Of a DNA stretch of 64,000 bases, positions 1,870 to 53,378 are shown piece after piece (positions within the stretch are counted from its first letter, which is position 1; each line of letters opens with the position of its first letter). Source of the stretch: Octopus vulgaris (lineage: Eukaryota); assembly GCA_951406725.2 (NCBI GenBank), contig OX597818.1, positions 129,332,001 to 129,396,000 on the forward strand, given 5' to 3'. The notes beneath the pieces are model-generated. The model had not been told where the DNA came from. It made no database searches and saw only the letters and a list, made by a program, of their open reading frames with translations. The position numbers and the translations under genes are program-made.

Positions 1870-3754
1870 GATGCACTACCGACCCCAGAAGATATTTTTA
1901 CAAAACTAAACAGAAGAAAAATATTTTCAAAACTTGATCTCTCTGATGTATATCTACAAATCAAAGTAGATAAAAAAATATTCAAAGCTGTAAATGGTCA
2001 ACACGCACAGAAGTCTATACAAAGACAATAGACTACCTTTTGGACTGAAAGTAGCACCTGCTATATTTCAACAGGTGATGGAATGTTGGCAGACTGTCGA
2101 TTTGCCAGTCCTTACCTTGATGACATGTTAATTAAAAGTGAATCATGGAATGAGCATATAGAACACATGAAGTGTGTCTTTAAAAATATTAAAGATTATG
2201 GTTTCACACTTAGTGAAGAGAGTGTGAATTTCTTTTGCCTAAAATCAGATACCAAGGTCAAATCATAGATAAGAATGGAAGACGTCCTGACCCGTCGAGG
2301 GCAGACACAATCAAGAATATACCTCCTCCAATGAATATACCAACATTACAAGCTTTCCTTGGCCTAGTAAATTGCTATTCCAAATATACATAAATTCAAA
2401 GCACCATTAAATGATTTACTAAAAAAAGAAGTAAAATGGAATTGGTCAGTGAAGTGCCAAAATGCATTTGAAGACATAAAGAAAATACTAATTTCTTACT
2501 TGTCACTAGTGACTTTCAATCTTAAAATGGACATTGTTGTAGTGTATGATGCTCTGGAGTATGGAATGGGAGCAGTCTTGCTATACAAGTATAAAGATGG
2601 AAATATGAAGCCAATAGTTCATGCTTCATGTTCACTTATAGCAGCAGAAAAATAGTATAGTCAGATAGAGAAGGAGGCTCTATCGATTATTTTTGCCGTA
2701 AAAAAATTTCAAAAATTTCTACATGGTAGAAGACTTTTTTACAAACCAACCATCGACCATAGCTATCAATTTTTGGATCAAAAAAGGGATTGCTCACCCA
2801 TGCAGTGAACCAGCTACAATACTGGGGTACAATATTGCTGAACTATAATTTTACGATGCAGTATATTCCGCCAAAGAAAATTGGTCATGCAGACTGCTTA
2901 TCGAGGTTAATTCCCAAGAGCATGGAACCACTAGAAGAGACTGTGATAGCATCATTGCAGTCAGAAAATGAAGCAAGAAGTATTGTGTGTAATATAATCC
3001 AGGAACTTCCGGTGACAGTGGATGATATAAAAATGAAATCCTTAGAGGATAGTTACATAACGAGAATGAAAGAAACATTGGAAAATAAGCATAATGAAAA
3101 TACAAATTCAAATAATTCCTCACTATGCGACGATGTCTTAATGTATGCGCAGAGAGTAGTAGTACCAAGTACACTACAGAAAAGAGTATTGCAACAATTC
3201 CACTGTGGGCACCCGGGAATGTCCAGAATGAAAGCTTTAATGAGGAACTTTGTATATTGGCTGACTATGGACAAGGACATTGAGAAATTGTTGAAAGTAT
3301 GTAGTGGCTGCACATTGGCAACCAAAGCACCACCAGTAAAATACCAATCATAGCTGAAGACAGAGGCCATGGTCTAGGATACATCTTGACTATGCTGAAC
3401 CAGTGAACAGCGCATACTATCTAATCATTGTGGATAGCTATACAAAGTGGCCAGAGGTATGTAGTTGTAATAAATCCATAGCAAAGCTAACAATAAACTT
3501 CCTACTTGAGTTATTTGCTCAATATGGTGCTCCAGACATGTTAGTTTCAGATAATGGAACACAATTCACAAGATATGAATTAAGAAATTTCTGCAAAAAA
3601 CATGCCATAAAGCACATCTTTACCCCACCCTACCACTTGAGGTCAAATGGGCAGGTGGAAAGATTAGTCGATACATTCAAAAGAGCTCTAAGAAAAGCTA
3701 GGAACAAGCTGGATAATGATGAGGCACTAACAAAATTTTTGAGAGTATATAGAA
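1870..3754 (+). pseudogene. gypsy pol remnant: RT, RNase H, integrase
   Basis: FSKLDLSDVYLQ, RLPFGLKVAPAIFQ and YLDDMLI (RT); YDALEYGMGAVL, SQIEKEAL and IGHADCLSR (RNase H); H-x3-H..C-x2-C, IVDSYTKWPE, VSDNGTQF and SNGQVERLV (integrase). Confidence 0.93.
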
Positions 3755-5352
3755 CTAGCAGTATTGCCCAGCGTTGCTTGGGTTTGTTTCAACCCGCTGG
3801 AATTGGAATTTTTGAAAAGTAAAAAGTTTGCATTATGTAGCTTGTTATTCTCTTCAAGTGAACATTTTTGTGGTTGAAATACACCGAAAAGTGGCGACAC
3901 AGCAGTGAAAAAATCGTAAAAAATAGGGATTTTCATAGAAAAAAGCACCTTTTTGATGTAAATAATTTTTGGTGTTAACATGGTCCGATTTGAATTTTAT
4001 CTTCTACGGAAGGAAGAGCAACCCTTCTATCATACTCTCAATTTTGGTCAACTTGCGCCGTAGGGTCTCGGAGGAGATAGTGTTAGTTGAAGGCTACCAA
4101 ACCTGGTGCACACAGACAACTTCAGCTTTATATAGAGAGAGATAACACACACACATTAATACACATACATACACACACACACACATGTATGTATGTATAT
4201 ATGTACATCTGTCCACTTCTTGCCATATTTTTATCCTTCACTTCCTACACACACACACACACACACTCTCACACACACACACACACACACGCACGCACAC
4301 ACACACACCTTCTTAGCTTACAATTTTCTTTCAACAATTGACAACTGAAGTACGCTCACAAATTAATACTACAAAAACTTAGCGACAGAAAGTAAATTAA
4401 AAACCAATTTACCTTTTCTGTTGAGTTATCATTCTAATTCGACCGTCTGATTTCCTTAAATCCGTTTCTTTTCTTCAACTGAACTTAGTTCCTATCGTTT
4501 CTTAAAGTCCTTTGTGAAATCTAGGAGTGTTTATTTTTTGTTATTTCTCGAGAAAGTTTTATTTCCTGGACACTAAAAACTAACAGGAAGTAGACAACAG
4601 TCCCAATACAATGGTGCAATAGTGTAACTCATAATGTGAGCGGCTAGCATGTACTCACCATATGTCAGTGAATTGTTGCTGTGTTGCTGTGAATTGTGTT
4701 TGGTGCCTTTTTTACTAATAACAAACACACATGTGTGTGTGTGTGTGTTTGAGTGTTAGTATGTAGTTGTTTGAAACGTTTGTGTTTGTCACTGTCATAT
4801 ATGTATATGTTTGCGTGTCTATGTGTGTAAAGAGAAAGTAGGAGAAAGTGTGGTAATAGGCGGAGTAAAGCCTTTGAAGTGAGAGAGGGAAATCGTAAAA
4901 TATAGAGTTTTCTCGAATTTTTGCTTAACTGGGGGTCAAATTGAAAGAAATTTATATGCCATGACCGAATGGAATATACTTCGAAAAATCATAGGTAAAT
5001 TCCAATTGAAGAAATTGTGTGAGGAGTAAATCGTTATGTATTTATTTGTTTCTGTTTGCTCTGTATTTGAGTAGTGGTTTAAGGTACACTTGCAAAGAGA
5101 AAGTAGGAGAAACTGTGGTAATAGCAGGAGTGAAGCAGTTGAAATTAGAGAGGCAAATCGTAAAATATTTACTTTTCTCGAATTTTTGCTTAATTGGGGG
5201 TCAAATTGAAAAAACTTTTTATGCCATGACCCAATCGAATCTACTTCGAAAAATCATAGGGAAATTCCAATTGAAGAAATTCTATATTGTAGAATTGTAT
5301 TAAAAACGAACATGGTAACAGGCAGAGAAAATCTGCCTTTTATCATAAGAGA
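3755..5352 (-). mobile_element. Non-autonomous composite Helitron inserted in the gypsy integrase
   Basis: The minus strand starts TC (5352) and ends cccaagcaacgctgggcaatactgCTAG (hairpin plus CTAG, 3755). It sits at an A|T site with no TSD, and removing it restores integrase ..YR-ITQNPNTNSRKSSAELMF. Confidence 0.85.
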
Positions 5353-5830
5353 TAACACAAAATCCAAATACTAATTCAAGAAAGTCCTCAGCAGAGTTAA
5401 TGTTCATGTATAAAATAAAATTGATCTTCGATAAATTATTGCCAGGAAAGACAAAAAATACATTTGTAAAGGAAAGACAAAAAATACATTTGAAGGAAAT
5501 ACAAGAAATATTACAAGACATTTCGAAGTAGGAGATAAAGTTCATTTTAAAAATTACAATAATGGTAAAGAAGGTTGGGAGGATGGCTATGTAATCAAAA
5601 GATTAGATAATATGATGCATTCAATTAAAGGACAACATTGGGAACAAAAGAGACACCGTAACTAGTTAAAGATGAGACATATAGAAGAAGGAAGGGTAAT
5701 ACCAATGGAAGTCTTCTATGATATGTTTGAACTGTCAACACCAAGAGATATTGAACTCTGTTGAACTAGCTTCAGAAAACGAAAACAGACTGAATATCAG
5801 GAAGTATTACCCAAACAAAAAAGATATTAA
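5353..5830 (+). pseudogene. gypsy integrase C-terminal remnant
   Basis: ITQNPNTNSRKSSAELMF..IFDKLLPG continues the integrase frame interrupted at 3754. Confidence 0.8.
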
Positions 5831-6012
5831 ATTTTCAAAAAACAAAAAAACATTAACGTGCTAACAAGAATGTTTAGTACAATAAAAAGAAAAAGTGCTG
5901 TGTGCAACGAACAATACTACCTTAAAAGTCGGATAACAATTAAGATACAACAACTAAAAGAAAAGAAAATAGGGAGAGGTGCTGGAAAGAAAACAAATAA
6001 AAATAAAAGAAA

Positions 6013-6259
6013 TGTGATAAGAGTTATGACACCCCCTTGCAAGAGATAGACTGGTCCAAGTAAAGTATATATAGTAATGATCCGAGTTCAGAGTTGAGTG
6101 AAGTTTATGTTAGTTTGTAGGGAAGCCAGAAGGTGTCAGTTGGTTAGTTCACAAAGAATATTGATTGTTGGTTCATAAAGAGATTTGTTTGTTCATTGCA
6201 TTGCTGTTACTGTTTTCTGGTTATCTTATTTATTGTATGTACCAAATTATGTTACAACA
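6013..6259 (+). repeat. 3' LTR
   Basis: tgtgataagagttatgac...aattatgttacaaca. Confidence 0.9.
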
Positions 6260-6431
6260 TCATATTGACCCTGATGGGATAAAAGGCAAAGTTGACCTCG
6301 GTGGAAAATGCACTCAGATCATAAAGAGCCAGAAGAAAATACCACATGGTATCTAATGCAGGCATGAGGCTAGCAATTTTGAAGGGAGAGAATTAATCAA
6401 TGAGGATTCTAGTACTAGGACAAGGATAAAG

Positions 6432-6658
6432 ATCTTTCCTGAGCCATATAGACTCATCAGGCCAGTTTCCATGGTGCTTATATTCCTCTCTGGACAGGAT
6501 GCCGGTCCGTCACAGAATTACTCATTTTTGCCAGTTGAGTGAACTGGAGCAACTGGAGTATTGTTTTGCTCAAGAACACATGTCACCTGGTCCAGGAATC
6601 GAAACCACAACCTTACGATCATGTGTCCAACACCCTAACCACCAAGCCATGTACCTCC
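6432..6658 (-). mobile_element. tRNA-derived SINE (CORE-like body)
   Basis: Reverse-complement homology to 17544-17801. Confidence 0.7.
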
Positions 6659-7390
6659 TTTGATTCTAGCCTAACACATAATTTTATCAACATCAGAAAA
6701 ATGAAAAGGCAAATTTAGCTATGGTGGGACTTGAACTCATAAAATAAAGAAATGTAACTAAATACAACTAGGTATGCTGGTGATTATATGCTAAAAGATG
6801 ATGAAAGGCTGAATAATAGGGATGGAGAAGGTAGGATATGGTAGAAGCAATGTGGTTGGGTGGTTGGGTGTGGGTAGGTTTGGGTAGACTTATCTATGAA
6901 ATTTCTGTTTATTAAATGTGGAAGCAAAAATGGTGAAATGTTAATCATAGAATGCAGCTGCTAAAAGATCTTGGATGGAGATAGGTGCATGGTGATGATG
7001 GTAGTGGTGGTGGTGGTGGTTGTGAGAGGTGAGAAATGGGTTTGATGGAGAGAGAAAGGGACAACTAAGAGAAAGACTGAGAGGGAGTAAGGAGAGAAAG
7101 AGAAAGAGAGAGAGAGAGAGTGTATGTGTGTAAAAACGTATGAAGACTTGCAGAGTATACAGTAAGTTGTGTATCTGTATGTGAAACAGAAAGTGAAAGT
7201 GAATGAAAGAGTGCATGTAAGGAACAGAGGGGAGCAGGAGAGAGAGAGAGAAAGTTGAAAGGAGGGAAGTGAAAGTATATAAGAAAGAGAGAGTGGGCTT
7301 TAAATACATATGAAGATATATACTTGTAAAAAGATACATATATATATGTGTGTGTGTGTGTGTGCACGTATATGTGTATATATATCTATA

Positions 7391-7423
<33 letters not shown>

Positions 7424-7488
7424 GTATCAAATACACTTACACACAAACTTTACATCTTTTCTGTTTCTCAGCTTTATAAGTGAAAATA

Positions 7489-7528
<40 letters not shown>

Positions 7529-8125
7529 ACGTGTACGTCTGCCCATGAAAGTGTTTATCTGTCTGTATAAAGAGATAGGTAAAGAAAGTATGACAGAAAG
7601 AAGGTAGTGAGCAAGCGTGAAAACAAAAGAAGAGAGAGAAAGAGAAAAAGAGAGCGGTGGGAAGAGAAAAGGTTTTGGATACAAGTGAAGATATGGGTGT
7701 GACAGAAAATGAGTTTTCTTAGAGAAAGAGAGGAAAAAGTGCGTTTGCAAGAGGGAGTGCACAAGAAAGTGCTCAAGAACACAGAAAGGGAGGAAAAGTT
7801 AGATGTGTGTAATTATGTGTGTTTATGTATGTGTGTATTCAAATGTATGTAAGAGTGGTAGAAAAGGAGAGTGCATGAGTAACAGAGAAGAAAGAGATAA
7901 AGAGAAAGAGAGAGAGAGAAAAGACAGATAGAAAGAAGAGAGTCTGAAAATATGAAAGTAAACATGAGCTATCACTGGAAGACATGGAGAAAGTGCAAGA
8001 AAGATCAGTAAAGACAGAAAGAGTACAAAGGCTATAGATAAAATAAAGGTCATATACCCTTATATTTTTACATATTTCCTCTTTCTTTTACACACACATG
8101 TACACCTGCACATAATACGACATAT

Positions 8126-8435
8126 CTCTCTCTCACCCTTTTCAAGCCTAGCCAGGCTTATGGGCCTGGTTTCCCGGTTTCTGTGGCGTATGTGTTCCTC
8201 CCAGCTGGACGGGACGCCAGTCCATTGCAGTGTTACTCAAGAAACAGGAAGAGAGAGTGAGAGAAAGTTAGGGTGAAAGAGTACAACAGGGGTCGCCACC
8301 ACCCGCTGCCAGAGCCTTGTGGAGCTTTAGGTGTTTTTGCTCAATAAACACACACACAATGCCCGGTCTGGGGATCAAAACCATGATCCTCTGACCATGA
8401 GACTGCTACCCTAACCACTGAGCCAATGCACCTCC
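8126..8435 (-). mobile_element. tRNA-derived SINE (OR-like) with 12-bp TSD
   Basis: A-box (TGGCTCAGTGG) and B-box on the minus strand; TSD aatacgacatat / aatatgacatat at 8114-8125 and 8436-8447. Confidence 0.85.
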
Positions 8436-8631
8436 AATATGACATATAGAAAGGCATATATGCACTGACAAACACACACATTTGGATTCGTGCATTTAGA
8501 CATAAAGATGCAGGTATAGTCTGTATGTTGTCACGTTCACTCTGCAACCACATGGTTTTTAGTTCAAACACAATGTGTGGTGCACTTTAAGCAAATATCT
8601 TCCCCTATAATCCCAAATTGACCAATACATA

Positions 8632-8960
8632 CATCATCATCATTTAACGTCTGTTTTCCATGCTGGCATGGGTTGGATGGTTTTGACCAAACCTGGCAAG
8701 ATGGAGAGCTGCACCAGGTCCCAGTTTGATATGTCTTGGTTTCTATGGTTGTACAGCCTTTCTAACACCAACTACTTTGCAGAGTGCGCTGGATGATATT
8801 TTAAGTGACACCAGCACAGGTGACTTTTATGCAGCCCAGTGTATGGGTGCTTTTTATGTGGAGCTGGCACTGAGTGCTTTTCACACAACACTGACACAAG
8901 TGCATTTTTATGTGGTATTGGCATGGATAACTTTTACATGGCACCAACACAAGTGCTCTT
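8632..8960 (-). mobile_element. Old RTE-LINE 3'-UTR fragment
   Basis: (CAT)n-tttaacgtctgttttccatgctggcatgggttgg end shared with the 11062 element. Confidence 0.7.
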
Positions 8961-11234
8961 TGTGTGGCATGGATGATCAACTTCATTATTGTTTCATGTC
9001 TGTTTTCAAAACTGGAAAAATTTGGACAGGTCATCATAGTCTTAAACAGTTCTTATTCAGGATCATTGTTCTACATGACAGATCGAGGGACTACGTCTTG
9101 CTCATGTGTTGTCAAATTTGGCATGATTTCTAGATGCAGGTGTGACTGTGTGATTTAGAAGCTTGCTTCCCAACCATGTGGTCATGAGTTCAATCCCACT
9201 GTGCAGTACCTTCTACTATAGTCTTGGGATGACCAAAGCCTTGTCAGTGAATTTGGGCAGATGGAAACTGGTTCTAAATATCTCTTCCCTCACAGATTAT
9301 AACTCATCATAGCATTTGGTAGAATATCACCTGATGAAATGGAGTGGTTACATAATAAGATGAAATTATGCAACATTATCTAATATGGTATAATAAAGAC
9401 ATATAATAATGTTTTTAAGTATCCATTCGTTTTTATTTATTATCTATCTATCTACCTTGTATGTGTGTGTGTGCGTGTGTGTGTGGATGTGTTGTATGTG
9501 TCTGTGTGTACCCTTGTCTAGACATCAGATGATGATTGTAAAGGAACATCACCATCATACAAGCAATGTTTCTTTCGAGTCTTCAATGAATAACATGTCT
9601 GGATATGATAATATATTACCTTGCTTGGAAACAGATGAGAGTTGGCAGCAAAAAGGACATCCAACGCTGGTAAATCTACCTCAGTAAATTCTGTCTGACT
9701 CATGCAAACTATGGAAAAGTAGACATTAAATAATGACGATGATGATACCCTTCATGACACCAACCCCTTTAGAAAGTGTACTAGACACATTTTATCTTGT
9801 CACTAGCACTAGAGACGTTGTAGTTTCCTTAACACAGGAGTAAAGGATCTTCTCAAATCTATATTCTCTCTCTACCCATTTAGCAATCACTTTACAGAAT
9901 CAACACAATTTCACTTACAAGGCACTGGTTAACTCAGCAACTTGGTAAATGATGCTTGTACAATATGCCTCACAGTAGGATTGAAGCTGGTATCTTGTAA
10001 TTGAGAAGCAGACTTCTTAATCCTTTGGCCATGGTGCATCCATATTTTAAGCACACACACACACACACGGACTGGGGATCTAATCCAGGTATACCCACTC
10101 TCATATACTTATGTAATAATATACATTAATGATGAAACACATAAACTAAGGACCATATTGTCTTGCTCTTATACCTGCACATACTCACACACTTACTCCC
10201 AGACTGACTGAGAGTCTAATCCATGTATACACACACACACTCACACACACAAATGCAATAGTATACATATAGAGATGAAACGCAAAAACATGCACATGCA
10301 TGCACACACACATGTATATGCTTGCACACACATATGTATATGCATGCACACACATACACATATATATGCATGCACACACACACACACACAATAAGGAGCA
10401 TACCCTGACACGGGAAATATGGATTGCATCCTCTCCTTCATTCCCTTTCTCTCTCATGTCACACACACACACACACACACACACAAGTGCACACACACAT
10501 ACGCACACATATGTGCATGCACGTACACACACATTACACACACCACACACACACGTACACGGAAAACATGAATATCATTTACCTAGTGATTCAACACAGG
10601 AAATTAAATAATAAATTCTTAGATATTTAATTTAAACTATTGAAATTGTTAAATAAAAAATACAAAAGGAGCCTATAGGTGGTTGTACAGTCTGCTAGAC
10701 ATAGTAGGCAAGTCCTTCTTTTGCTTTAAAAATCAATGAAAGGACACAGTAGTATAGTTTTAGATATATTATAAGAGAGGCCAGTCATAGCAGGAACACC
10801 TTTGATCATAAATCCATTTAATCAGGATTGGCCCCGGGGCTAAACTGCAACAAGAACAACAACAGGAAATTGATAATAAATTCTCAAATCTTTAATTGAA
10901 ACTGTTTAAAACCTTGAATTTGAAATATATTTAATTAAATATATATATATATATGTATGTATATATATATATATATATAAATATATATATATAAATATAT
11001 ATATATAAATATATATATATAAATATATATATATAAATATGTATATATAAATATATATATATCATCATCATCATCATCATCGTTTAACGTCCGCTTTCCA
11101 TGCTAGCATGGGTTGGACGGTTCAACTGGGGTCTGGGAAGCCCGAAGGCTGCACCAGGCCAGTCAGATGTGGCAGTGTTTCTACAGCTGGATGCCCTTCC
11201 TAACGCCAACCACTCCGAGAGTGTAGTGGGTGAT

Positions 11235-11700
11235 TTTATGTGCCACCGACACAGGTGCCAGACGAGGCTGGCAGACGGCCACGCTCGGATGGTGTTTTTT
11301 ATGTGCCACCGACACAGGTGCCAGACGAGGCTGGCAGACGGCCACGCTCGGATGGTGTTTTTTATGTGCCACCGACACAGGTGCCAGACGAGGCTGGCAG
11401 ACGGCCACGCTCGGATGGTGTTTTTTATGTGCCACCGACACAGGTGCCAGACGAGGCTGGCAGACGGCCACGCTCGGATGGTGTTTTTTATGTGCCACCG
11501 ACACAGGTGCCAGACGAGGCTGGCAGACGGCCACGCTCGGATGGTGTTTTCTTATGTGTCACCGACACAGGTGCCAGACGAGGCTGGCGGACGGCCACGC
11601 TCGGATGGTGTTTGTTACGTGCCCTCAGCACGGAGGCCAGTCATTGCGGTACTGGCTACGGTCACGTTCGGATGGTTTTCTTATGTGCCCCCGGCACTGG
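11235..11700. repeat. 63-bp GC-rich tandem repeat (VNTR) in the LINE 3' UTR, about 7 units
   Basis: Unit tatgtgccaccgacacaggtgccagacgaggctggcagacggccacgctcggatggtgttttt; five essentially identical units plus degenerate ones. Confidence 0.95.
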
Positions 11701-11873
11701 TACCACAAGGATACAAATTCCATTGATGTTCATCTATTTTGATTTGGTTCGATTTGATTTGATACGATTCGATTCTCACTTGCCTCAACAGGTCTTCACA
11801 AGTGTCACAAGAAGGAAGGTATGCACAGGTGGACTGACTACGTCCCAGGTAGGGGCCACGGATTATGGCTTCA

Positions 11874-14155
11874 CTAGTCTTGCCGGGTCTTCTCACGCAC
11901 AGCATACTTCCATAGGTCTCGGTCTCTAGTCATTTCCATGGTGAGACCTAACGTCCGAAGGTCGTGCTTCACCACCTCGTCCCAGGTTTTCCTGGGTCTA
12001 CCTCTTCCACGGGTTCCCTCAACTGCTAGGGATTGGCACTTTCTCACACACCTATCTTCATCCATTCTCGCCACATGACCATACCAGCGCAATCGTCTCT
12101 CTTGCACACAACAACTGATGCTTCTTAGGTACAACATTTCTCTCAAGGTACTAACGCTCTGTCGAGTAAGTACACTTACATTACACATCCATCGGAGCAT
12201 ACTGGCTTCATTCCTCACGAGCTTACGCATGTCCTCAGCAGTCACGGCCCATGTTTCACTGCCATGTAGCATAGCTGTTCGTACACATGCATCATACAGT
12301 CTGCCTTTTACTCTGAGCGAGAGGCCTTTAGTCACCAGCAGAGGTAAGAGCTCCCTAAACTTTGCCCAGGCTATTCTTATTCTAGCAGTTACACTTTCAG
12401 CGCACCCACCCCCACTACTGACTTGGTCACCTAGATAGCGGAAACTATCAACTACTTCTAGTTTTTCCCCCGGAAAGTGACAGAAGTTGTTTTCTGCAGA
12501 TTTTCGGAGGTCAATGCTCCAGAGCACCTGCCACATACAAAAACTATCTTCCCGGTTAGCCTACCTTTGACATTGCTGCACCTCTTATGTGTCCATAGCT
12601 TACACTGGGTACATCTTATAGAGTTTCTACCTACACCTTTTCTACAGATCGAGCAGGGCCATCTTCCTGATGATATTTGTGGGTTTTCTACCTTTCTACT
12701 TATTAGTACTTTGGTTTTAGCTAGGTTGACTCTAAGGCCCCTCGATTCTAAACCCTCCTTCCACACCTGGAACTTCTCCTCCAGTTCTGATAGTGACTCA
12801 GCGATTAGAGCGAGGTCGTCAGCATAGAGGAGCTCCCAGGGGCAACCTGTCTTGAATTCCTCCGTTATTGCCTGGAGGACTATGATAAATAGGAGGGGGC
12901 TGAGTACTGAACCCTGGTGGACCCCAACCTCTACTTTGAATTCTTCTGTGTACATGTTGCCAACTCTAACCTTACTTACGGCATCTCTGTACATGGCTTG
13001 CACAGCCCTCACCAGCCATTCATCTATCCCTAGTTTCCTCATTGACCACCAGATGAGGGATCGGGGGACCCTATCAAAGGCTTTCTCCATGTCAACGAAA
13101 GCCAGGTACAGGGGCTTATCCTTGGCTAGGTATTTCTCCTGCAGCTGCCTTACCAGGAATATAGCATCAGTGGTGCTTTTTCCTGGGACAAACCCAAACT
13201 GCATCTCATCTAAACTAACTCTCTCTCTAATTAATTGGGCTATGACCCTCTCCGTAACCTTCATTACCTGATCCAACAGCTTGATACCTCTGTAATTATT
13301 TGTATCCAGGGCATCACCTTTACCTTTGTAGCAGTTGACTAGTATGCTGCTACACCAGTCATTGGGTATGACTCCTTCGTGTATCACCTGGTTGACTATA
13401 CGGGTGACTAGGTTATAGCCGACACTGCCAGATATTTTGAGCATCTCTGCAGTAATTCCTGATGGGCCTGGGGCTTTCCCTGTCTTCATGCTTCTAATTG
13501 CCTTAGCTACCACGGAACTATCAACTCGGATAGCTGGTCCCTCTGTTGGGTCAACATTTGGCAGACTCTCTTTATCCCATTCATTTTCTTTATTCAGCAA
13601 ACTTCCATAGTGGCATCTCCAAACCTCTCTCTTTGCATCCTCATTTAGCGCAAGTGAACCATCATCCATGCGAACACACTTCTCTCCTACCACATCACGA
13701 TTCTCTCTCACACACTGTCTTGCAACACGAAATACCTCAAGTCTTTCATCCTCACGGCTCAGAACATTGGCAAATTTTTTCTTATCCGCTTCCCCTCTGG
13801 CTATATAAACCTGTCTCCTAGCTTCCCTTTTGGCTGTCTGATACAATTCCCTGCTACCACCGTTCTTCCAGTCCTTCCAAGCCTGTCTCTTTTGTCTAAT
13901 AGCCCCGTCAACCACCGTGTTCCACCACCATGTTACTCTGGGTCGAGATGGTACTTTGCTCCATCCACAGATCTGGTCAGTGGCTGTCAGCAGATTGTCC
14001 CGTAGGAATCTCCAGTTGTCTTCCACATTAAGTGAAGCTATACCCCCTTCTATTTCGTCAGAGGCTTCGAGTAGTATGTCTCTAAATCTCTGTCCATTTG
14101 CAGGATCTTTAAGTTTCCAGACCCTTCTCCTCCAAGCTGGTCTTCTTCTGGGCAA
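11874..14155 (-). pseudogene. LINE ORF2 (linker, RT with embedded PHD finger, C-terminus); one frameshift near 12470; endonuclease lost by truncation
   Basis: KAPGPSGI, NYRGIKLL, QFGFVPGKST, FVDMEKAFD, GVHQGSVLSPLLF, YADD, then in the second frame VVDSFRYLG..RRLRWYGHVARM..RGRGRPRKTW. Confidence 0.95.
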
Positions 14156-14170
14156 CCATTTAGTCCTGAT

Positions 14171-14240
<70 letters not shown>

Positions 14241-14454
14241 TGTATGTATGTATGTATGTATGTTTGTATATTTAATTAAATATATTAATTAAAATATATA
14301 CATATATATAAATATACATACATATATATATATATATATGGAATTCATATACATATATATATTTATATACACATATACACCCATACATATACATACAAAT
14401 ATGTATGCATGCATATACATACACATATAAATAGATGTGTATATATACACAAGT

Positions 14455-14919: not shown

Positions 14920-15877
14920 TCCGCAAGGTTCTGAGCTGAAGATTGTAGCCTTATTGATAAAGAGCGATCAGGCAGACCATCCACTACAGATGATGACCAA
15001 ATCAAGTCATTAATTGAGATTAACCAACATTGCACAACCCAAGAAGTGGCAGAAAGCCTCAACCTATCAAAATCCGTCATTCATGAGCACCTGGTAAAGC
15101 TTGGGTACACAAATCGCTACGATGTTTGGGTACCACATGAGTTGAGTGAGAAGAATCTTTCTGATCACATTTCCATCTGTGATTTGCCTTATAAATGGAA
15201 TGAAAATACACCTCTTTAAAGCAAATTGTGACAGGTGATGAGAAATGGATTATCTACCAAAATGTTCAGAGAAAGTGATCCTGGAGTAAGTGACATGAGC
15301 CACCCTTAGCCACCCTGAAAGCAGGTTTTCACCCTAAAAAAGTCTTACTTTGTGTCTGGTGGGATTGGAAAGGAATTCTGTACTATTAGCTTCTACCAAG
15401 TAACCAGAAAATTAATTCTGAGAAATACTGCACACAACTGGATGGGTTAAAAGCAGCAATTCAAGAGAAATGTCCAGAATTGGCCAACAGCAAGGGTGTT
15501 GTTTTCCAACATGATAATGCAAGACCGCAAGTTTCTTTGAGAACCAGACAAAAATTGCTTCAGCTTGGTTGGGATGTGTTTCCCCATCCTCCATATTCAC
15601 CAGATATTGTTCCTTCGGATTTACACTTATTCAGGTCTCTTCAGAATAGTCTTAATGGTAAAAATTTCAATTCCTTGGATGAAGTAAAAAGATACTTTGA
15701 TGAATTCTTTGCCATGAAACCACATCAATTCTGGAAAGAGGGTATTTTCAAGTTAAAGGAAAGATGGAGATGCATTGTGAAACAAAATGGTTCATATTTG
15801 GTTGATTAAAAATGTAATGGCAAGTATTTATTGACCTTTTTCTTTCCTTTAAAAATTGGCACGAACTTTCTGGAAAC

Positions 15878-17801: not shown

Positions 17802-18534
17802 TATGAAAATATGGGGTAGGGGAGCATTTTTAATTTATATTCTTTCTCTCTTCTTCACACACACACAAACACACTCTCTCTCTGTGTCTGTCTCTCCATC
17901 ACTAAACTTTGCAAAGACTGCTTCACCACTACACTGCAGAAACCCCTAACATCTTTCAAGAAAGGTAGATAGATTGATAAATAGTTATATAAATAAACAA
18001 AAAAGGGAGATAAACAACAATAGGATAATAAGGGTATTTACATGGAAAGCTGCATATTCAAATGAACATACGTTTGCAGAGGTAATTACATCAAAGAAGT
18101 GATTGAGGAGGGAGACCATGTTCCGATATAATATAGTGAGTGACTCACAAAACAAGTCACAAGGTACATCCTCTACTTCTTTTGTAAAGAATTCCACCAT
18201 CAACTACATACCAGGAGATATTATAGGGCATATTCTCAGCTTTAAAGTGGAGGGTTTTCTTGAGCAGTTAATTCATTGAATTACTCAATGAGTTAGCTTG
18301 TAAGTGGCTGAGTATTCTACAAAAACTTATACTCTTAACATAATTCTCAGGCTAGATTATTGTGGCAATTCATTTCATCTGGTGGGATTCAGTGGTTTCC
18401 AACTGTCAAATTTCACTTACAAAGCTACAATTATCCCAAGGCTATAATAAAAAAAAAACTCTTGCTTAAGAGACCATGCAATGGGATCAAACCCAGGATC
18501 TCATGATTGTAAGGTGAACTTCTTCACCAGTTGA

Positions 18535-18615
18535 AGCTCTGATGAAGCTATTGAGGGACACAAAAGCACTCAACTATGAGTGCATTGCAACTCATAGCAG
18601 AAACAGCTGTAAGCT
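18535..18615 (+). ncRNA. Putative minimal type-I hammerhead ribozyme
   Basis: agct-CTGATGA-a[gctattgag..ctcatagc]a-GAAA-cagctg-TA-agct: complete catalytic core, extended stem II, palindromic stem III, GUA cleavage triplet. Confidence 0.7.
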
Positions 18616-19306
18616 AATGAAGTTCATTAGATAATTTCATGTTCCTTTGTCATTTTAATTGCTTATTACTGCCCTCTACTTGACTGACACTTTGTTCTGA
18701 AGTATATGTATATTGAGTTCTAATGCCAGGTTATTAGTATCACTATGCCTAAGTGAAATAATAAAATATATATGCGTATGTGTGCATGTGTTCTTGAGTG
18801 TATACTTTAACCAGCTTATATGGATGGAAGCATGTGTGTGTACAACGATATAATTGTACGTTAATGAATCTGATCCCTTCCTTGGAAAAGGAAGAAGTTG
18901 TTCAGTGTTAATTGAACATAAAGTCCATTAAGCTTTAATTTGAAGAGATTTTATTAAGATTTAATTGAAATTCAGTCCCACTGAATATTAGTAGTTAAAA
19001 GTGTTTGTATGTAGTTGACAGATGGAATTTTAATTATCTCTTTAGGTGTAGTAGTTTGGATAAATGTTAACTCAACTTTTCTATTAGACTGCAAGTAAAT
19101 ACCCACAAAGTTTGGTTGCAACCTGAGTTAATCTAGCGCAACACTATTTGAAGGTACAATTGGGATGTTGAGTGTTCTTTAGGAGAAGATTCAAGCACCC
19201 AGCAAACTGAGTCTGCCTCTCATTCAAGGGTATTTCTCAAGGGTTTTAACAGCATCAAATCAAAATAAAAAGCTCTCAAAAACTGGCTTTGATCAAAATT
19301 AGAAAT

Positions 19307-30810: not shown

Positions 30811-31221
30811 AACCGCCACCTTCATTAAACGTACATGCAGCCAGCCTCTCATCCAGTTCCCTTCATCTGTGGTTTTTGCTCCATCAGTTGAACAAGTAAG
30901 TCTCTTTAAATGCTGTTGGATGTTCATGATACTTACAACAAAGGGCTCTTTAGAAAATATTGCATTTCAGCTCAAGGGAACTGCAAAGTAGCATTACAAG
31001 ACAAAAGAACTAATGTGCTGCCAGTTATACCTAGAGAGTCAGTTAAAATGGTTCCAGCTTACTTATAAGACAACAATATGCATGTGCGCATTTGTGTGTG
31101 TATGTGTGCATAGACACATTCATAGACATATATACATACACATTTTGCTTAGGCATTGTGAGGTAATGAGCCGATGTAGAAATCAGTATAGATATGCATC
31201 AGAAGAAAGTGTTAGGTGAGT

Positions 31222-31580
31222 ATAGGGTGATAATAAGAAAACGAGGTGATAAAAGAATAAAAGATTATCTTATGAGCTCCATTAGCTTGCAGCTGTTTCT
31301 GCCTTAAAATGCAACAGACTCATTCTTGAGTGCCTGAATAACATTTTATAGCTTCATCAGAGCCTTGAATATGAAGCAGACTTTATTTGGGAAAAGAATT
31401 GTATTTGTGATTACATACAAGGAAAGGCATTGCCAGCTTCATATTTGAGGCTCTGTTGAAGGTATAAGGTGTTATTCACTCAACTTTGAGTCCACTGCAT
31501 CTTATAGCAGGAACAGTTGTATTCTAATTAAGTTAATAACATAATCGTTCTTCCCTTTGTCATCTCGATTTCTCATCTGT
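31222..31580. mobile_element. Inverted pair of hammerhead-containing repeats (Penelope pLTR/retrozyme-like)
   Basis: Minus arm HHR motif at 31284-31364 and plus arm degenerate motif at 31449-31525; both homologous to 18535-18660. Confidence 0.65.
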
Positions 31581-32102
31581 GTGTGTATGCGTATGTGTGT
31601 GCGTGTGTGTGTATATATATAGTAAGAAAAGGTAAGTTGTAATGTAAAATATAAATATAAAATAAAAAAGGAAATGCACACAGTTTACATAGTTTTAATG
31701 TATTTTTTGATATATTTTATAAGTGAAAGAGTATTTGTGTTTGTTGACCGGTTTCACTTTCACTAATCATGACATTGAAATTATTGTAATTTCATATTTT
31801 CTTAAGAAGATTTTTGTCCATGCTGTGTATGGGAATTTCATTCACAGATTCCCATATTATGTCTGACATAGCAGATGCAGAAATACACATAGTGAAGTAT
31901 GCTGTATTTTGAACTCATAGTCAGCCTGAGGCTATATGAGACACTTGCCCAAGATGCCACAAGGTACTTTGTAGTGGGATTGAACCTGGAACCATCATCT
32001 AGGGTTTCCTTTCAAAGAACTGATGATGTAGGTACAAGAGATTCTCAGTCATTGATATTTAACCCTTTAACATTTACATTTCTTTGTCAAATGTATTGCT
32101 TA

Positions 32103-37524: not shown

Positions 37525-38090
37525 TCATCATCATCATCATCATCATCGTTTAACGTCCGCTTTCCATGCTAGCATGGGTTGGACGGTTCAACCGGGGTCT
37601 GGGAAGCTAGAAGGCTGCACCAGGCCCAGTCTGATCTATCAGTGTTTCTACAGCTGGATGCCCTTCTTAATGCCAACCACTCCGTGAGTGTAGTGGGTGC
37701 TTTTTACGTGCCACCTGCACAGGTGCCAGACAAGGCTGGCAAACGGCCACAATCGGATGGTGCTTTTTACATGCCACCGGCACGGAGGCCAGGCGAGGCT
37801 GGCAAACGGCGATAATCGGATGGTGCTTTTTACATGCCACCGGCACGGGGACCAGACGAAGCTGGCAACGGCCACGGTCGGATGGTGCTTTTTACGTGCC
37901 ACTGGCATGGAGGCCAGGCGAGGCTGGCAATGGCCACGATCGGATGGTGCTTTTTACGTGTCACTGACACGGAGGCAGTCGGGGCGGCGCTGGCAATGGT
38001 CACGTTCGGATGGTTCTCTTATGTGCCACCGGCACTGGTATCACAGCTACAAATTCCATTGATGCTGACAGATTACAATTTTGATTTTCG
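37525..38090 (-). mobile_element. RTE-LINE 3'-UTR fragment with about 5 VNTR units
   Basis: Homologous to 11062-11760. Confidence 0.9.
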
Positions 38091-38890: not shown

Positions 38891-40093
38891 CAGGGGTTGG
38901 ACAAAATAATGGAAACATCTTAAAATGTCAAGCAAATATATTTTAATATGGAGTAGGACTGCCTTTGGCAGTAATTAAAGCTTGAATTCTATGAGGCATG
39001 GGCTTGTACAAAAAATGAATTGTTTCCAAAGGAATTTTTGTCCATTTTCCTTCTAAAACAGTCTCCAGTTCTTGTAGTAATGATGGTGGAAGATATCGAC
39101 TCATTACTTGTTTTTCTAAAATGCACCATAAATGTTCAATAATATTGAGATCTGGGGACTCTGGTGACCAAGTTAAGATATTCAACTCACTACAAAGATT
39201 GCGTTTCCCTCCGGAAACAGTTTCACAACCCTAGGATGAATTTGATCTGATAACATGCTTAAACAGTATTGACTATTAATTCTACCATGAAGGGAAACCA
39301 TTAAGCTGGTAGATTTCCAAGATATAGCCCCCCACCCCAACGATCATTACAGATCCTCCTCCATGTTTAACAATTGGAAGAAGACAGTCTGGGTCAAATG
39401 CTTAGTTTTGGCTGTCTCCACATGTATACTCAGCTGGTGGCTGGAAATAAAGTAAATGATGACTTGTTCAAGAAAATAACATTCTTTGACTCCTCTAGGG
39501 ACAAACTCTATAGATTTTTACTCCACTCTAAATGCTTTGCAATGTTTGATTTTGAAAGTAGTGGTTTTCTGATTGCAGCCTTCTCGTAAAATCTGGCTTT
39601 GTGCAGCTCTCGGCAAACAGTTTTTATGGAAACCAGGTTCTTGAAGTATTCATTGAGCTCTGCAGTGATATTGGGAACTGTACTTTTTTGATCCTTTCTA
39701 ACAATTTGCATAAGAGTCCAAAGGTCCCTATCTGAAAGTTTAGGTTTTCTTCTGGAGTTTTGTTTTGACGAGGAGGTTTTCCCCTCTTTCACAAAGGCTG
39801 TCATTACTTTCGAGACAGTACTTCTTGATACACCAAACATTTTGGCTGCTTTCATTACACTAGCGCCTGCCATACAAGCACCAACAATTTGACCTCTTTG
39901 AAAGTCTGATAGATCTGTCATTTTAATGAATTTTAATTATCTTTTTCTGATGATATCTGAGAAGAAACATATTAAGCAACACTAATAAGAAATCAGAAAG
40001 CATAAACATAATCAAGCTTTTGATGCTTTTATAGCTATGTCAACATTATGATGCTATGATGCTAGGTGTTTCCATTATTTTGTCCAACCACTG
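38891..40093 (-). mobile_element. Full-length decayed Tc1-like transposon
   Basis: TIRs caggggttggacaaaataatggaaaca / tgtttccattattttgtccaaccactg with TA on both sides; transposase MTDLSDFQRGQIVG...WSPESPDLNIIEHLW (39921 to 38943), frameshifted. Confidence 0.95.
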
Positions 40094-44668: not shown

Positions 44669-44840
44669 TATATATATATATATATATATATGTATAAAAA
44701 AATACAAACTGGGACAAGAACGCAAAACATTTAGAAGACGATACAAAAAACACGGATGGGACATTCGAAGCCTTCAATCTTCAGTCAAGAACCGGACCAT
44801 CCTTGCAATTTCGGCTGATTAATCTTGATTAATCCATATA

Positions 44841-45317
44841 TCATCATCATCATCATCATCATCGTTTAGCGTCCGTTTTCCATGCTAGCATGGGTTGGAC
44901 GGTTCTACTGGGGTCTGTGAAGCCAGAAGGCTTCATCAGGCCCAGTCAAATCTGGCAGTGTTTCTACGGCTGGATGCCCTTCCTAACGCCAACCACTCCG
45001 AGAGTGTAGTGGGTGCTTTTTACGTGCCACCCGCACAGGTGCCAGACAGAGCTGGCAAACGGCCACGAACGGATGGTGCTTTTTATGTGCCACCGGCACG
45101 AGGGCCAGGCGAGGCTGGAAACGGACACGAAACGGGGCGGTGCTGGCAACGGTCACGAAACGGAAGGTTCTCTTACATGCCACCGGCACTGGTAACACAT
45201 CTGCAATTTCCATTGATCGATTTCAATTCTGATCCTCACTTGCCTCAACGGGTCTTCACAAGTAGAGTTTCGACATGCCACCGGCACTGGTAACACATCT
45301 GCAATTTCCATTGATCG

Positions 45318-50561: not shown

Positions 50562-51063
50562 TACTTCTCAGAGTGCTCAGTCTTGTTTGCTCTGGTTGAA
50601 TCTATGAGAGCGGACAGCAGCCTGTTGTTAGAGGTCTCGCAGGGTTTCTTTCCATTTGATATTTGGTTGTTAATTATGGTGGGAGATGTTTAACATCCAA
50701 GTACCAATCTAAAAATCCTAGTTGTCCTCATCTGCACAGTTTTGGGGGCTTGTTCTGCTCTCATGCCAATTCCAATTTCTGACATATTTCTCAAACTTGG
50801 TTGTTAGTGCTCCAAGTACCCCTACAACTACTGGAATGACAAGCACTCTCCTCACAGTCCACATTCTTGCAATTTCATCTTTTAGTAGTCCATACTTTTC
50901 AATCTTTTCTTATTCTTTGGCACATATGCATGCTTCCCCAGGTATTGCAAGATCTATAATCTTGGTTTCCTTTTTTCCTTCATCTACTACAACAATATCT
51001 GGTCTCTGAGCATTGATTAGGATGTCACAATTGGATTATAAAATCCCACAGTATCTTATATTC
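50562..51063 (-). mobile_element. R4/Dong-like RLE-domain 3' fragment (third family)
   Basis: Minus strand ..QRPDIVVVDEGKKETKIIDLAIPG..KIEKYGLLKDEIARMW..VIPVVVGVLG; the 3' end abuts a TAA-like tract. Confidence 0.8.
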
Positions 51064-51065
51064 AT

Positions 51066-51870
51066 TGCTCCTTCCACCACCACTGCTGCTTCCACCACCA
51101 CTGCTGCTTCCACCACCACTGCTGCTTCCACCACCACTGCTGCTTCCACCACTACTGCTGTTTCAACCACCACTGCTGCTTCCACCACTACTGCTGTTTC
51201 AACCACCACTGCTGCTTCCACCACTATTGCTGCTTCCACCACCACTGCTGCTTCCACCACCACTGGCTTCCACCACTGTTGCTGCTTCCACTGCAACTGC
51301 AGCTTCCACCACCACTGGCTTCCACCACTATTGCTGCTTCCACTACCACTGCTGCTTCCACCACCACTGCTGCTTCCACCACCACTGCTGCTTCCACCAC
51401 TATTGCTGCTTCCACTACCACTGCTGCTTCCACCACTATTGCTACTTCCACCACTGCTGCTTCCACCACCACTGCTGCTTCCACCACTATTGCTGCTTCC
51501 ACTACCACTGCTGCTTCCACTACCACTGCTGCTTCCACCACTATTGCTGCTTTCACCACCACTGCTACTTCCACTACCACTGCTACTTCCACTACCACTG
51601 CTGCTTCCACCACTATTGCTACTTCCACCACTGCTGCTTCCACCACCACTGCTGCTTCCACCACTATTGCTGCTTTCACCACCACTGCTGCTTCCACCAC
51701 TATTGCTACTTCCACTACCACTGCTACTTCCACCACCACTGCTGCTTCCACCACCACTGCTACTTCCACCACCACTGCTGCTTCCACCACCACTGCTGCT
51801 TCCACTACCACTGCTGCTTCCACCACTATTGCTGCTTTCCCCACCACTGCTGCTTCCACCACCACTGTTG
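51066..51870. repeat. 18-bp (some 15-bp) minisatellite ccaccactgctgcttcca, about 45 units
   Basis: Directly visible; it produces long ORFs in several frames on both strands. Confidence 0.95.
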
Positions 51871-53378
51871 CCCACTGCCACCACCACCACCACCACCTGA
51901 AAGCCTACTGATATCCCATTTTGAGCAGTTACATTTGTTGTCATCAGTCCTCTTCTTTTCCTTTTCCAACTGCAGACCATTGTTGGGTGTGGAAGCTGTT
52001 TTATAGCCAGTCATCACCATCATTCTCATCATCAGCTAATTTTTACTTATCCTTGGGGGTTTTTATTATTTTTTTTTTTGCCAGTGGTGCATGAGAATAA
52101 GAGGGAGGGGGTAGATTGGGTAAGAGTTGTCGGGTGTAGGGTAGAGGGAAAGGTAGAACAAGGTAGAAGCATGTGTATGTGAAATCGTGTAAGTATAAGT
52201 GTACAAGAAATTTTATAATTGTCATCATTGTTGTCACCATCATTACTATCAATGTAATGATGATGATAATGATGATGATCATCATCATCCTTTTCATCAC
52301 TCAATATCAACATCTGCTGCTTCCTCCTCTTCTTCCTCATCATCTTTATCATCTTTCTCCTTGTTTTCGTTGTCATCGTCATAATTCTCATCGTCGCTTT
52401 CAACACCAACATCATCGTCATGAACATCATTGATCATCATCAGCAGATATCAACTTTGAAGCAGAGGCGGCAGTGGTGGTTGGGGGAGGATGTGGCAGGT
52501 CAGAAACAAGGAGTAGGAGGAGTGAGTGGTGGTGGTGGCAGTACTGGGGACAGTGGCATTATGGGTGAGAGGAGCATCATGGAGTGGTAATGGGATGGGC
52601 AAATTGAGGGTAAATATAGAGGAAGTAGGGGTGAGAAAGTGGGAAATGATAATGTAAATTGTGTGATGATGAGGTTAACAGAGGGGGCATGGGAAGAGGA
52701 TAGGTAAAATGTGTACATAAGGATAATGGCGATGACGATGTTGGGGATAGTGATGCTAATGGTGATAATGGCAATGATGATAATAATGATGAGGGTGGTA
52801 GTGGTGGTGGTGATGACAATGATGACGATGATGATGATGATGATGATGATGGTGAGGACAATTGGTGATGATGATGATAATGATGACAATGATGATAACG
52901 ACGATAATGATCATAATGATGATGGTGGCAGTTGTGATGGTGATGGTAATGCTGATGATGGAGATGATGTTGGTAGTGATGATGATGATGATCGTTATGG
53001 CTGGCTGTGGTGGTGGTTATGCTGACGATGATGATGATGTTGACAATGGTTGTGGTATTGATGATGATGGTAATGATGATGATGGTAATGATGATGATGA
53101 TAATGATTGGGGCGTGGAGTGATGATGATGATGGTGGTAGTGATGATGTTGATAATGATGATAAAGATGACCATGTTCGTAAAGATGTGATTGATAATGA
53201 TGACACTGTTGATGATGTTGATGCACCATTCCCTACTTACAAATTAACAATGAAGGTAAGGGAAAGGTTACATGTATGTGTATGTATGTATGTGTATCAG
53301 TAAGTTTATATGTATACAAACACACACACACACACACACATATATATTCATTCACAGCTAGTTCACATATACACATGC

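Follow-up and report, generated by a model that had tools for sequence, protein, structure and literature searches.

A head-to-head pair of truncated hammerhead repeats in the Octopus vulgaris genome, most likely a dead Penelope-type insertion

Within the window analysed here, a 64,000-nucleotide stretch of Octopus vulgaris contig OX597818.1, positions 31142–31573 hold two shortened copies of one repeat, arranged head to head within a TA/TG microsatellite. The long arm, a 294-bp copy on the minus strand (31435→31142), abuts the 138-bp short arm on the plus strand (31436–31573) with a gap of 0 bp and no microhomology at the junction. Both were placed with nhmmer using a family profile built from related copies, and each is a 5'-truncated copy of a dispersed ~435-nt repeat that carries a type I hammerhead. 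The long arm covers model positions 158–452 (E 1.3e-74) and ends at a fixed 3' site, A, with an end motif that agrees with the A end of the family, while the short arm covers model positions 216–357 (E 5.5e-36) and ends at a second fixed 3' site, B. The ~94 bp that lie between sites B and A form a tail present in the long arm only (31142–31235, minus strand). A decayed TA/TG/CA microsatellite on the left (31070–31141) and a TG/TA microsatellite on the right (31574–31621) are probably the two halves of the target, judging from their sequence and, for the left half, from the flank statistics of the family.

An earlier note on this DNA had described inverted arms of about 150 bp around a 55-bp spacer at 31222–31580. 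The inverted homology is clear, as 31236–31376 (minus) and 31436–31573/6 (plus) align locally with a score of 157.5, compared to a mean of 45 and a maximum of 69.5 in 300 shuffles, and the homology claimed between both arms and a motif near 18.5 kb is equally well supported (scores of 180.5 and 148.5 versus shuffle maxima of 71.5 and 79). The dimensions required correction: the minus arm extends ~94 bp further, to 31142, making the element asymmetric (294 + 138 bp), and the supposed spacer (31378–31435, minus strand) is the 5' continuation of that arm, corresponding to model positions 158–215. The 18.5-kb copy (18531–18767, plus strand) is a solo copy from another subfamily of the same repeat that ends at site A and keeps all core nucleotides (CUGAUGA at 18539–18545, GAAA at 18600–18603), with a predicted cut after 18611. 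The two arms at 31142–31573 differ by 24%. The locus recurs in contigs of two related organisms, with 5–6 differences in 526 bases, and one contig from a related organism covers 31349–31475, crossing the junction, with 1 difference; the structure is therefore no assembly artefact and is not confined to this assembly.

The family motif is a type I hammerhead in which CUGAUGA follows helix I, GAAA follows a long branched helix II, and the cut site, GUA, comes after a palindromic helix III. Its helix II region is 54 nt long and contains an inner hairpin, with a predicted A·A opposition at the base, and helix I has a predicted 7-bp outer extension. In the minus arm the hammerhead occupies 31276–31377, with CUGAUGA at 31360–31354, GAAA at 31299–31296, a palindromic helix III, a GGCU/AGCU helix I and a predicted outer helix I. 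The motif letters previously quoted for both arms are present in the sequence, and the plus-arm core (31449–31525, plus strand) is decayed as had been noted: this ribozyme is predicted to be inactive because of A6→U, A13→G, and the loss of both the helix III palindrome and helix I. The minus-arm core, which had been read as CTGATGA..GAAA-CA, is also damaged, having a GCA cleavage triplet in place of the family's GUA (88% of 209 aligned arms carry the U). Hammerhead cleavage triplets follow the NUH rule. The change in question, U16.1→C at 31289, breaks the A15.1–U16.1 pair, because of which this ribozyme is likewise predicted to be inactive, and on sequence grounds both ribozymes of the locus are predicted to be dead. 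A transcript across the locus would form one extended hairpin (-160.8 kcal/mol, z -11.1), and in this model any transcript would have only one sense ribozyme, buried in a long duplex, and so would not release a ribozyme-bounded unit. We predict that this copy neither self-cleaves nor gives rise to a monomer or circle.

Elsewhere in the family the ribozyme is better preserved. Among 105 arms picked by similarity and not by pattern, 44 keep the three core elements and 31 keep the helices too, and the core positions are invariant between subfamilies except for U4/C4. Covariation offers weak support for the hammerhead helices: of 4 differences between subfamilies in the main helices, 3 exchange A-U and G-U and one, at position 248, breaks a pair, and double compensatory changes are absent. 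In the minimum free energy fold of the family core the 5' strand of helix I pairs with the helix III loop and the active fold is absent; folds of single copies gave z values of -2.1, -0.7 and -3.1. An Rfam search of the window returned 211 matches at E≤1, and the 150 listed include no hammerhead family, being microRNA and sRNA models on microsatellites that all fall below the gathering score. We also noted, by eye, splice-like signals at model positions 303–396 (~18609–18702), spanning end B, that comprise a GU at the cut site, a CURAC-like branch point and an AG ~94 nt further on; no joint matching them occurs among the 15 of 63 joints listed. Separately, an unrelated repeat at 44840–44945 (minus strand) combines CUGAUGA with a downstream GAAA in an unusual helix order (fold z -4.3), and may represent a rearranged-hammerhead family.

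The 2.8-Gb genome contains 912 exact matches to a 17-mer taken from the core, compared to 0 for the reversed control. As this 17-mer is present in exact form in 2 of 20 unselected partner arms and in 26 of 120 arms picked by similarity, we estimate that the family comprises ~4,000–9,000 arms. Individual copies diverge from the consensus of their own subfamily by 11–14%. The longest form, of ~435 nt, starts at a TA/TG tract and carries the hammerhead ~215–285 nt in; site B (model ~357–360) and site A (~452–461) are about 95–105 nt apart. Relative to the cleavage site, the 5' edge of the unit is ~285 nt upstream and the two 3' ends are ~52 and ~147 nt downstream. In the literature searched we found neither this family nor a tail of ~100 nt described, and the family may already be catalogued in a repeat library. 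The main text of PMC13282606 does not contain the words "hammerhead" or "ribozyme".

To describe how copies are arranged, we used the first 70 loci listed for the 17-mer (of 912), which were chosen regardless of layout and all lie on two contigs. The profile detected 68 of these, the other 2 giving no match: 38 are solo, 28 head-to-head, 2 same-strand only and 0 tail-to-tail. The earlier note had asked for a count of solo, tandem and inverted copies; the first and last of these are frequent, and tandem arrays were not seen, a same-strand second match occurring in 4 of the 68 loci (2 of them also head-to-head). The census yielded 29 pairs (one locus being counted twice), of which 8 have an end outside both classes. 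Twenty of the 21 classifiable pairs join a long A end to a short B end, with 1 B+B and 0 A+A, an excess of long+short pairs with p=1e-5 against the 50% ceiling expected under independent choice. A larger set of 166 non-redundant loci, biased in that it includes loci picked by likeness to the 31142–31573 pair, gave 39 A+B, 2 B+B and 0 A+A pairs and 16 with an unclassified end. A position weight matrix scan of the 38 solo loci for hidden short partner arms found one clear case (L170), the rest not being clearly separated from control windows. Flanks that are microsatellite-like, with alternating purines and pyrimidines, adjoin 36 of 85 3' ends; the corresponding counts are 4 of 38 for the 5' flanks of solo copies and 39 of 560 for distal windows.

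The position of the head-to-head junction differs at each locus. Microhomology of at least 4 nt is found at 5 of 32 junctions, against a rate of 2.9% in a simulation of 140 blunt joins (p 0.01–0.03), a modest excess over this null. The junctions of six loci (L025, L193, L197, L202, L216 and L225) sit on symmetry axes of helices or palindromes of the RNA itself, and some cDNA–cDNA joints may have been closed through the ribozyme's own helices.

As a positive control, we looked at autonomous Penelope-like elements in the same genome. Of the 150 GIY-YIG matches that were scored, from 6136 candidates, 16 lie in 781-aa frames that carry RT and GIY-YIG domains (the RT scores being just below the Pfam cut-off) and a cysteine linker resembling that described for Neptune and Nematis (PMC8557442); our label "Neptune-like" rests on this linker motif and not on a tree. 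These elements have a minimal hammerhead with a palindromic helix III near the 3' end, and terminate in (TA)n. A young element (L152:430–5672) contains two ORFs, of which one of ~346 aa lies upstream of the 781-aa RT/GIY-YIG frame. Its 3' UTR of ~1.1 kb contains internal repeats, and the element also has a U3-A8-type hammerhead, a tail of 40 nt and many near-identical copies. Among 100 listed of its 931 end matches, 29 are long, 70 short and 1 ambiguous, and all 9 head-to-head pairs identified by eye are long+short. A second Neptune-like family, with a CCGAAGA hammerhead core and a tail of about 30 nt, is represented by L156:1821–4983, a copy that is itself a long+short inverted insertion.

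The hammerhead repeats thus share their layout with autonomous elements of the same genome, which bears out the Penelope connection that had been proposed for the locus, as do the exclusively head-to-head pairs, the two fixed 3' ends, the microsatellite targets and the palindromic helix III. Published accounts point the same way. Inverted, 5'-truncated pLTRs with a tail on one side are typical of EN+ Penelope insertions (Craig et al. 2021, PMC8557442), and the family shares with them head-to-head truncated copies, a one-ended tail, TA-microsatellite targets and a pLTR hammerhead. It differs from that account in its tail of ~95–105 nt, against a published 30–40 bp that is a descriptive value, in the lack of any ORF or parent that we could find, and in a longer, branched helix II with a predicted A·A at its base. 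In 2014 Cervera and De la Peña (PMC4209133) had already described dual hammerhead motifs on opposite strands, separated by 100–700 bp. The minimal PLE hammerheads of that paper also follow the type I order, with a palindromic helix III that is small, a short helix I and an extra nucleotide 5' of helix II, whereas the 54-nt helix II region with its hairpin and the predicted 7-bp helix I extension are particular to the repeats here.

The closest mechanistic parallel is PAc, a Poseidon element of anole, for which Frangieh et al. 2024 (PMC11167929) describe nicking and extension of both target strands and two internal RT start sites that define the tail. Two start sites defining a tail, extension of both strands and an AT-rich target are common to both systems. 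In our family, by contrast, genomic pairs are almost always long+short, the start sites are much further apart, and no ORF begins in the hammerhead. The PAc start site did not differ between strands in vitro, and because of this strict long+short pairing is not predicted by that work; the pairing is already known qualitatively and was not seen in vitro. The pairing observed here (20 of 21 and 9 of 9) argues for coupled two-strand priming, unlike the published assay.

We consider it probable, with good confidence, that the locus is one Penelope-type insertion of a likely non-autonomous RNA into a TA/TG microsatellite. Under this scheme a Neptune-like RT/GIY-YIG protein acting in trans would nick both strands of the microsatellite, and reverse transcription would be primed at internal site A on one strand and at internal site B on the other. 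Both cDNAs would stop early and then be end-joined with little or no microhomology, so that the fold-back would arise at insertion from a single-orientation RNA of ~435 nt. The copy has likely decayed neutrally since. That both arms need an RNA template is indicated by the 39 A+B pairs of the larger set, in which each arm often holds sequence that its partner lacks: in 14 the short arm outreaches the long arm on the 5' side by 15 nt or more, and in 5 the long arm falls entirely within the tail, so neither was copied as DNA from its partner. Because the arms of this locus are no closer to each other than average (distance 0.244 versus 0.263, with 43% of other arms closer), a single event at 31142–31573 is assumed from the pattern of the family.

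The earlier note had stated that no RT or GIY-YIG ORF is present, and a tblastn search of the window found no match to a Penelope protein. Seven protein queries from autonomous elements gave no tblastn match in 191 family loci, nor within 6 kb upstream of 20 5'-complete copies (from ~30 such), and because of the latter result the family is likely non-autonomous. Our search for an autonomous Penelope with this pLTR also failed in 70 GIY-YIG/Neptune loci: no linked parent was found, the family profile being convincing in only 2, both separate neighbouring insertions. L243 and L249 were rejected as parents, being neighbouring independent insertions. In sum, neither walking 5', nor following the 3' continuation past end A, nor the GIY-YIG loci (150 of 6136 candidates scored) yielded a parent, and since no parent with this pLTR was found the partner protein is deduced from layout. 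We tentatively propose, at somewhat less than even confidence, a non-autonomous mini-Penelope family with two RT start sites ~100 nt apart that are strictly coupled, one per nicked strand. If this were true, a single, probably dimeric, Penelope complex would engage both RNA sites at once, and the 30–40 bp tail would not be a fixed geometric limit. The MRC1-type non-autonomous Penelope-like elements of Chlamydomonas are likewise ORF-less with PLE-type ends; they resemble the 3' end of an autonomous family and often form head-to-tail arrays, neither of which was found here (PMC8557442).

With the same insertion mechanism, the family could instead be no more than the pLTR, at the 3' end, of an autonomous Neptune element of some age, its long copies having been lost or interrupted by an internal microsatellite; we regard this as possible though rather unlikely. 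Other Neptune-like families here do have 3' UTRs of 0.7–1.1 kb with a hammerhead near the end, one has a microsatellite inside its 3' UTR (L242/L243), and copy number drops steeply 5'-ward, with 2008, 148 and 26 candidates for successive segments, a rough gradient obtained with different queries. Because 5' truncation is so steep, a rare long parent could be lost or missed. Against this, 5'-complete copies begin at the same TA/TG tract with nothing in common upstream, except for a single pair, separated by 70 kb within the same contig, that resembles a local duplication, and their upstream 6 kb holds no ORF remnant in the 20 copies searched. Nor does any copy run past end A, as no sequence is shared beyond it in 88 ends (duplicates included) or among 100 listed of 136 pattern matches.

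Inverted copies would also result from two insertions made independently, or from snap-back duplication of DNA at a later time. That both ends target the same microsatellites, that the arms here are 24% apart and that some junctions fall on helix axes of the RNA would fit such an origin, which for this locus we nevertheless judge very unlikely and which is refuted for the family as a whole by the absence of tail-to-tail pairs, the strict long+short pairing, the abutting junctions and the sequence often private to each arm. In addition, arms are nearer to their pair partner than to the arms of other pairs in 41 of 41 testable pairs (of 42), at 0.19 versus 0.26; gene conversion between arms could also be the source of this within-pair similarity, a point that counts against the one-insertion model.

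The earlier note had instead pictured a tiny ribozyme-bounded fold-back element, and a related view is that of a retrozyme moving through self-cleaved or circular RNA. The type I hammerhead and the arms that keep core and helices speak for it, as do divergent family pieces in contigs of three runs presumed to be RNA, contigs which show neither ends, strand nor level; no circular joint is present among 15 of 63 joints listed, which come from contigs of the presumed-RNA runs only. No RNA data set containing the sequence was listed, a result that speaks neither for nor against expression. Non-LTR retrozymes (PMC7229834; bioRxiv 10.64898/2026.07.22.740005) are likewise non-coding repeats with a type I hammerhead and a presumed dependence on Penelope proteins, but they are defined by tandem arrays yielding circular RNAs, whereas the copies here are solo or inverted and their ends lie away from the cleavage site. 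With the mobile unit being a single-orientation RNA, the junction different at each locus, the two ribozymes on opposite strands, where they would be sequestered, and both cores here broken, we find this origin highly improbable. Least credible of all, to a degree bordering on negligible, is a MITE or fold-back DNA transposon, the outcome against which the Penelope idea had been set: the locus is indeed an inverted repeat with no ORF, but the outer termini differ in sequence (A versus B), refuting matching terminal inverted repeats, the inner ends are variable, solo copies account for 38 of the 68 loci, copies show a gradient of 5' truncation, and the hammerhead core is constant between subfamilies except for U4/C4. 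No TSD is discernible, TSDs being unresolvable inside a microsatellite.

The 31142–31573 locus itself is a dead fossil, and most likely an ordinary, now dead Penelope-type footprint whose only unusual features are the ~100-nt tail and the apparent lack of a coding parent. Its tail stretches the known range, and the family makes a small quantitative contribution to the question of how Penelope elements insert.

The window contains several other repeats. A LINE-like fragment at 11874–14275 (minus strand) has a 605-aa frame with an RVT_1 domain (E 7.8e-32) followed by a weak PHD-finger match, and 2763–3822 (plus strand) holds integrase fragments of LTR-retrotransposon type (Integrase_H2C2, rve) in two frames. 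Fragments of Tc1/mariner transposases are found at 39508–39936 (minus strand) and 15390–15809 (plus strand). A 63-bp tandem repeat recurs at 11165–11715, 37633–37930 and 44949–45183, and an 18-bp tandem array occupies 50929–51900.
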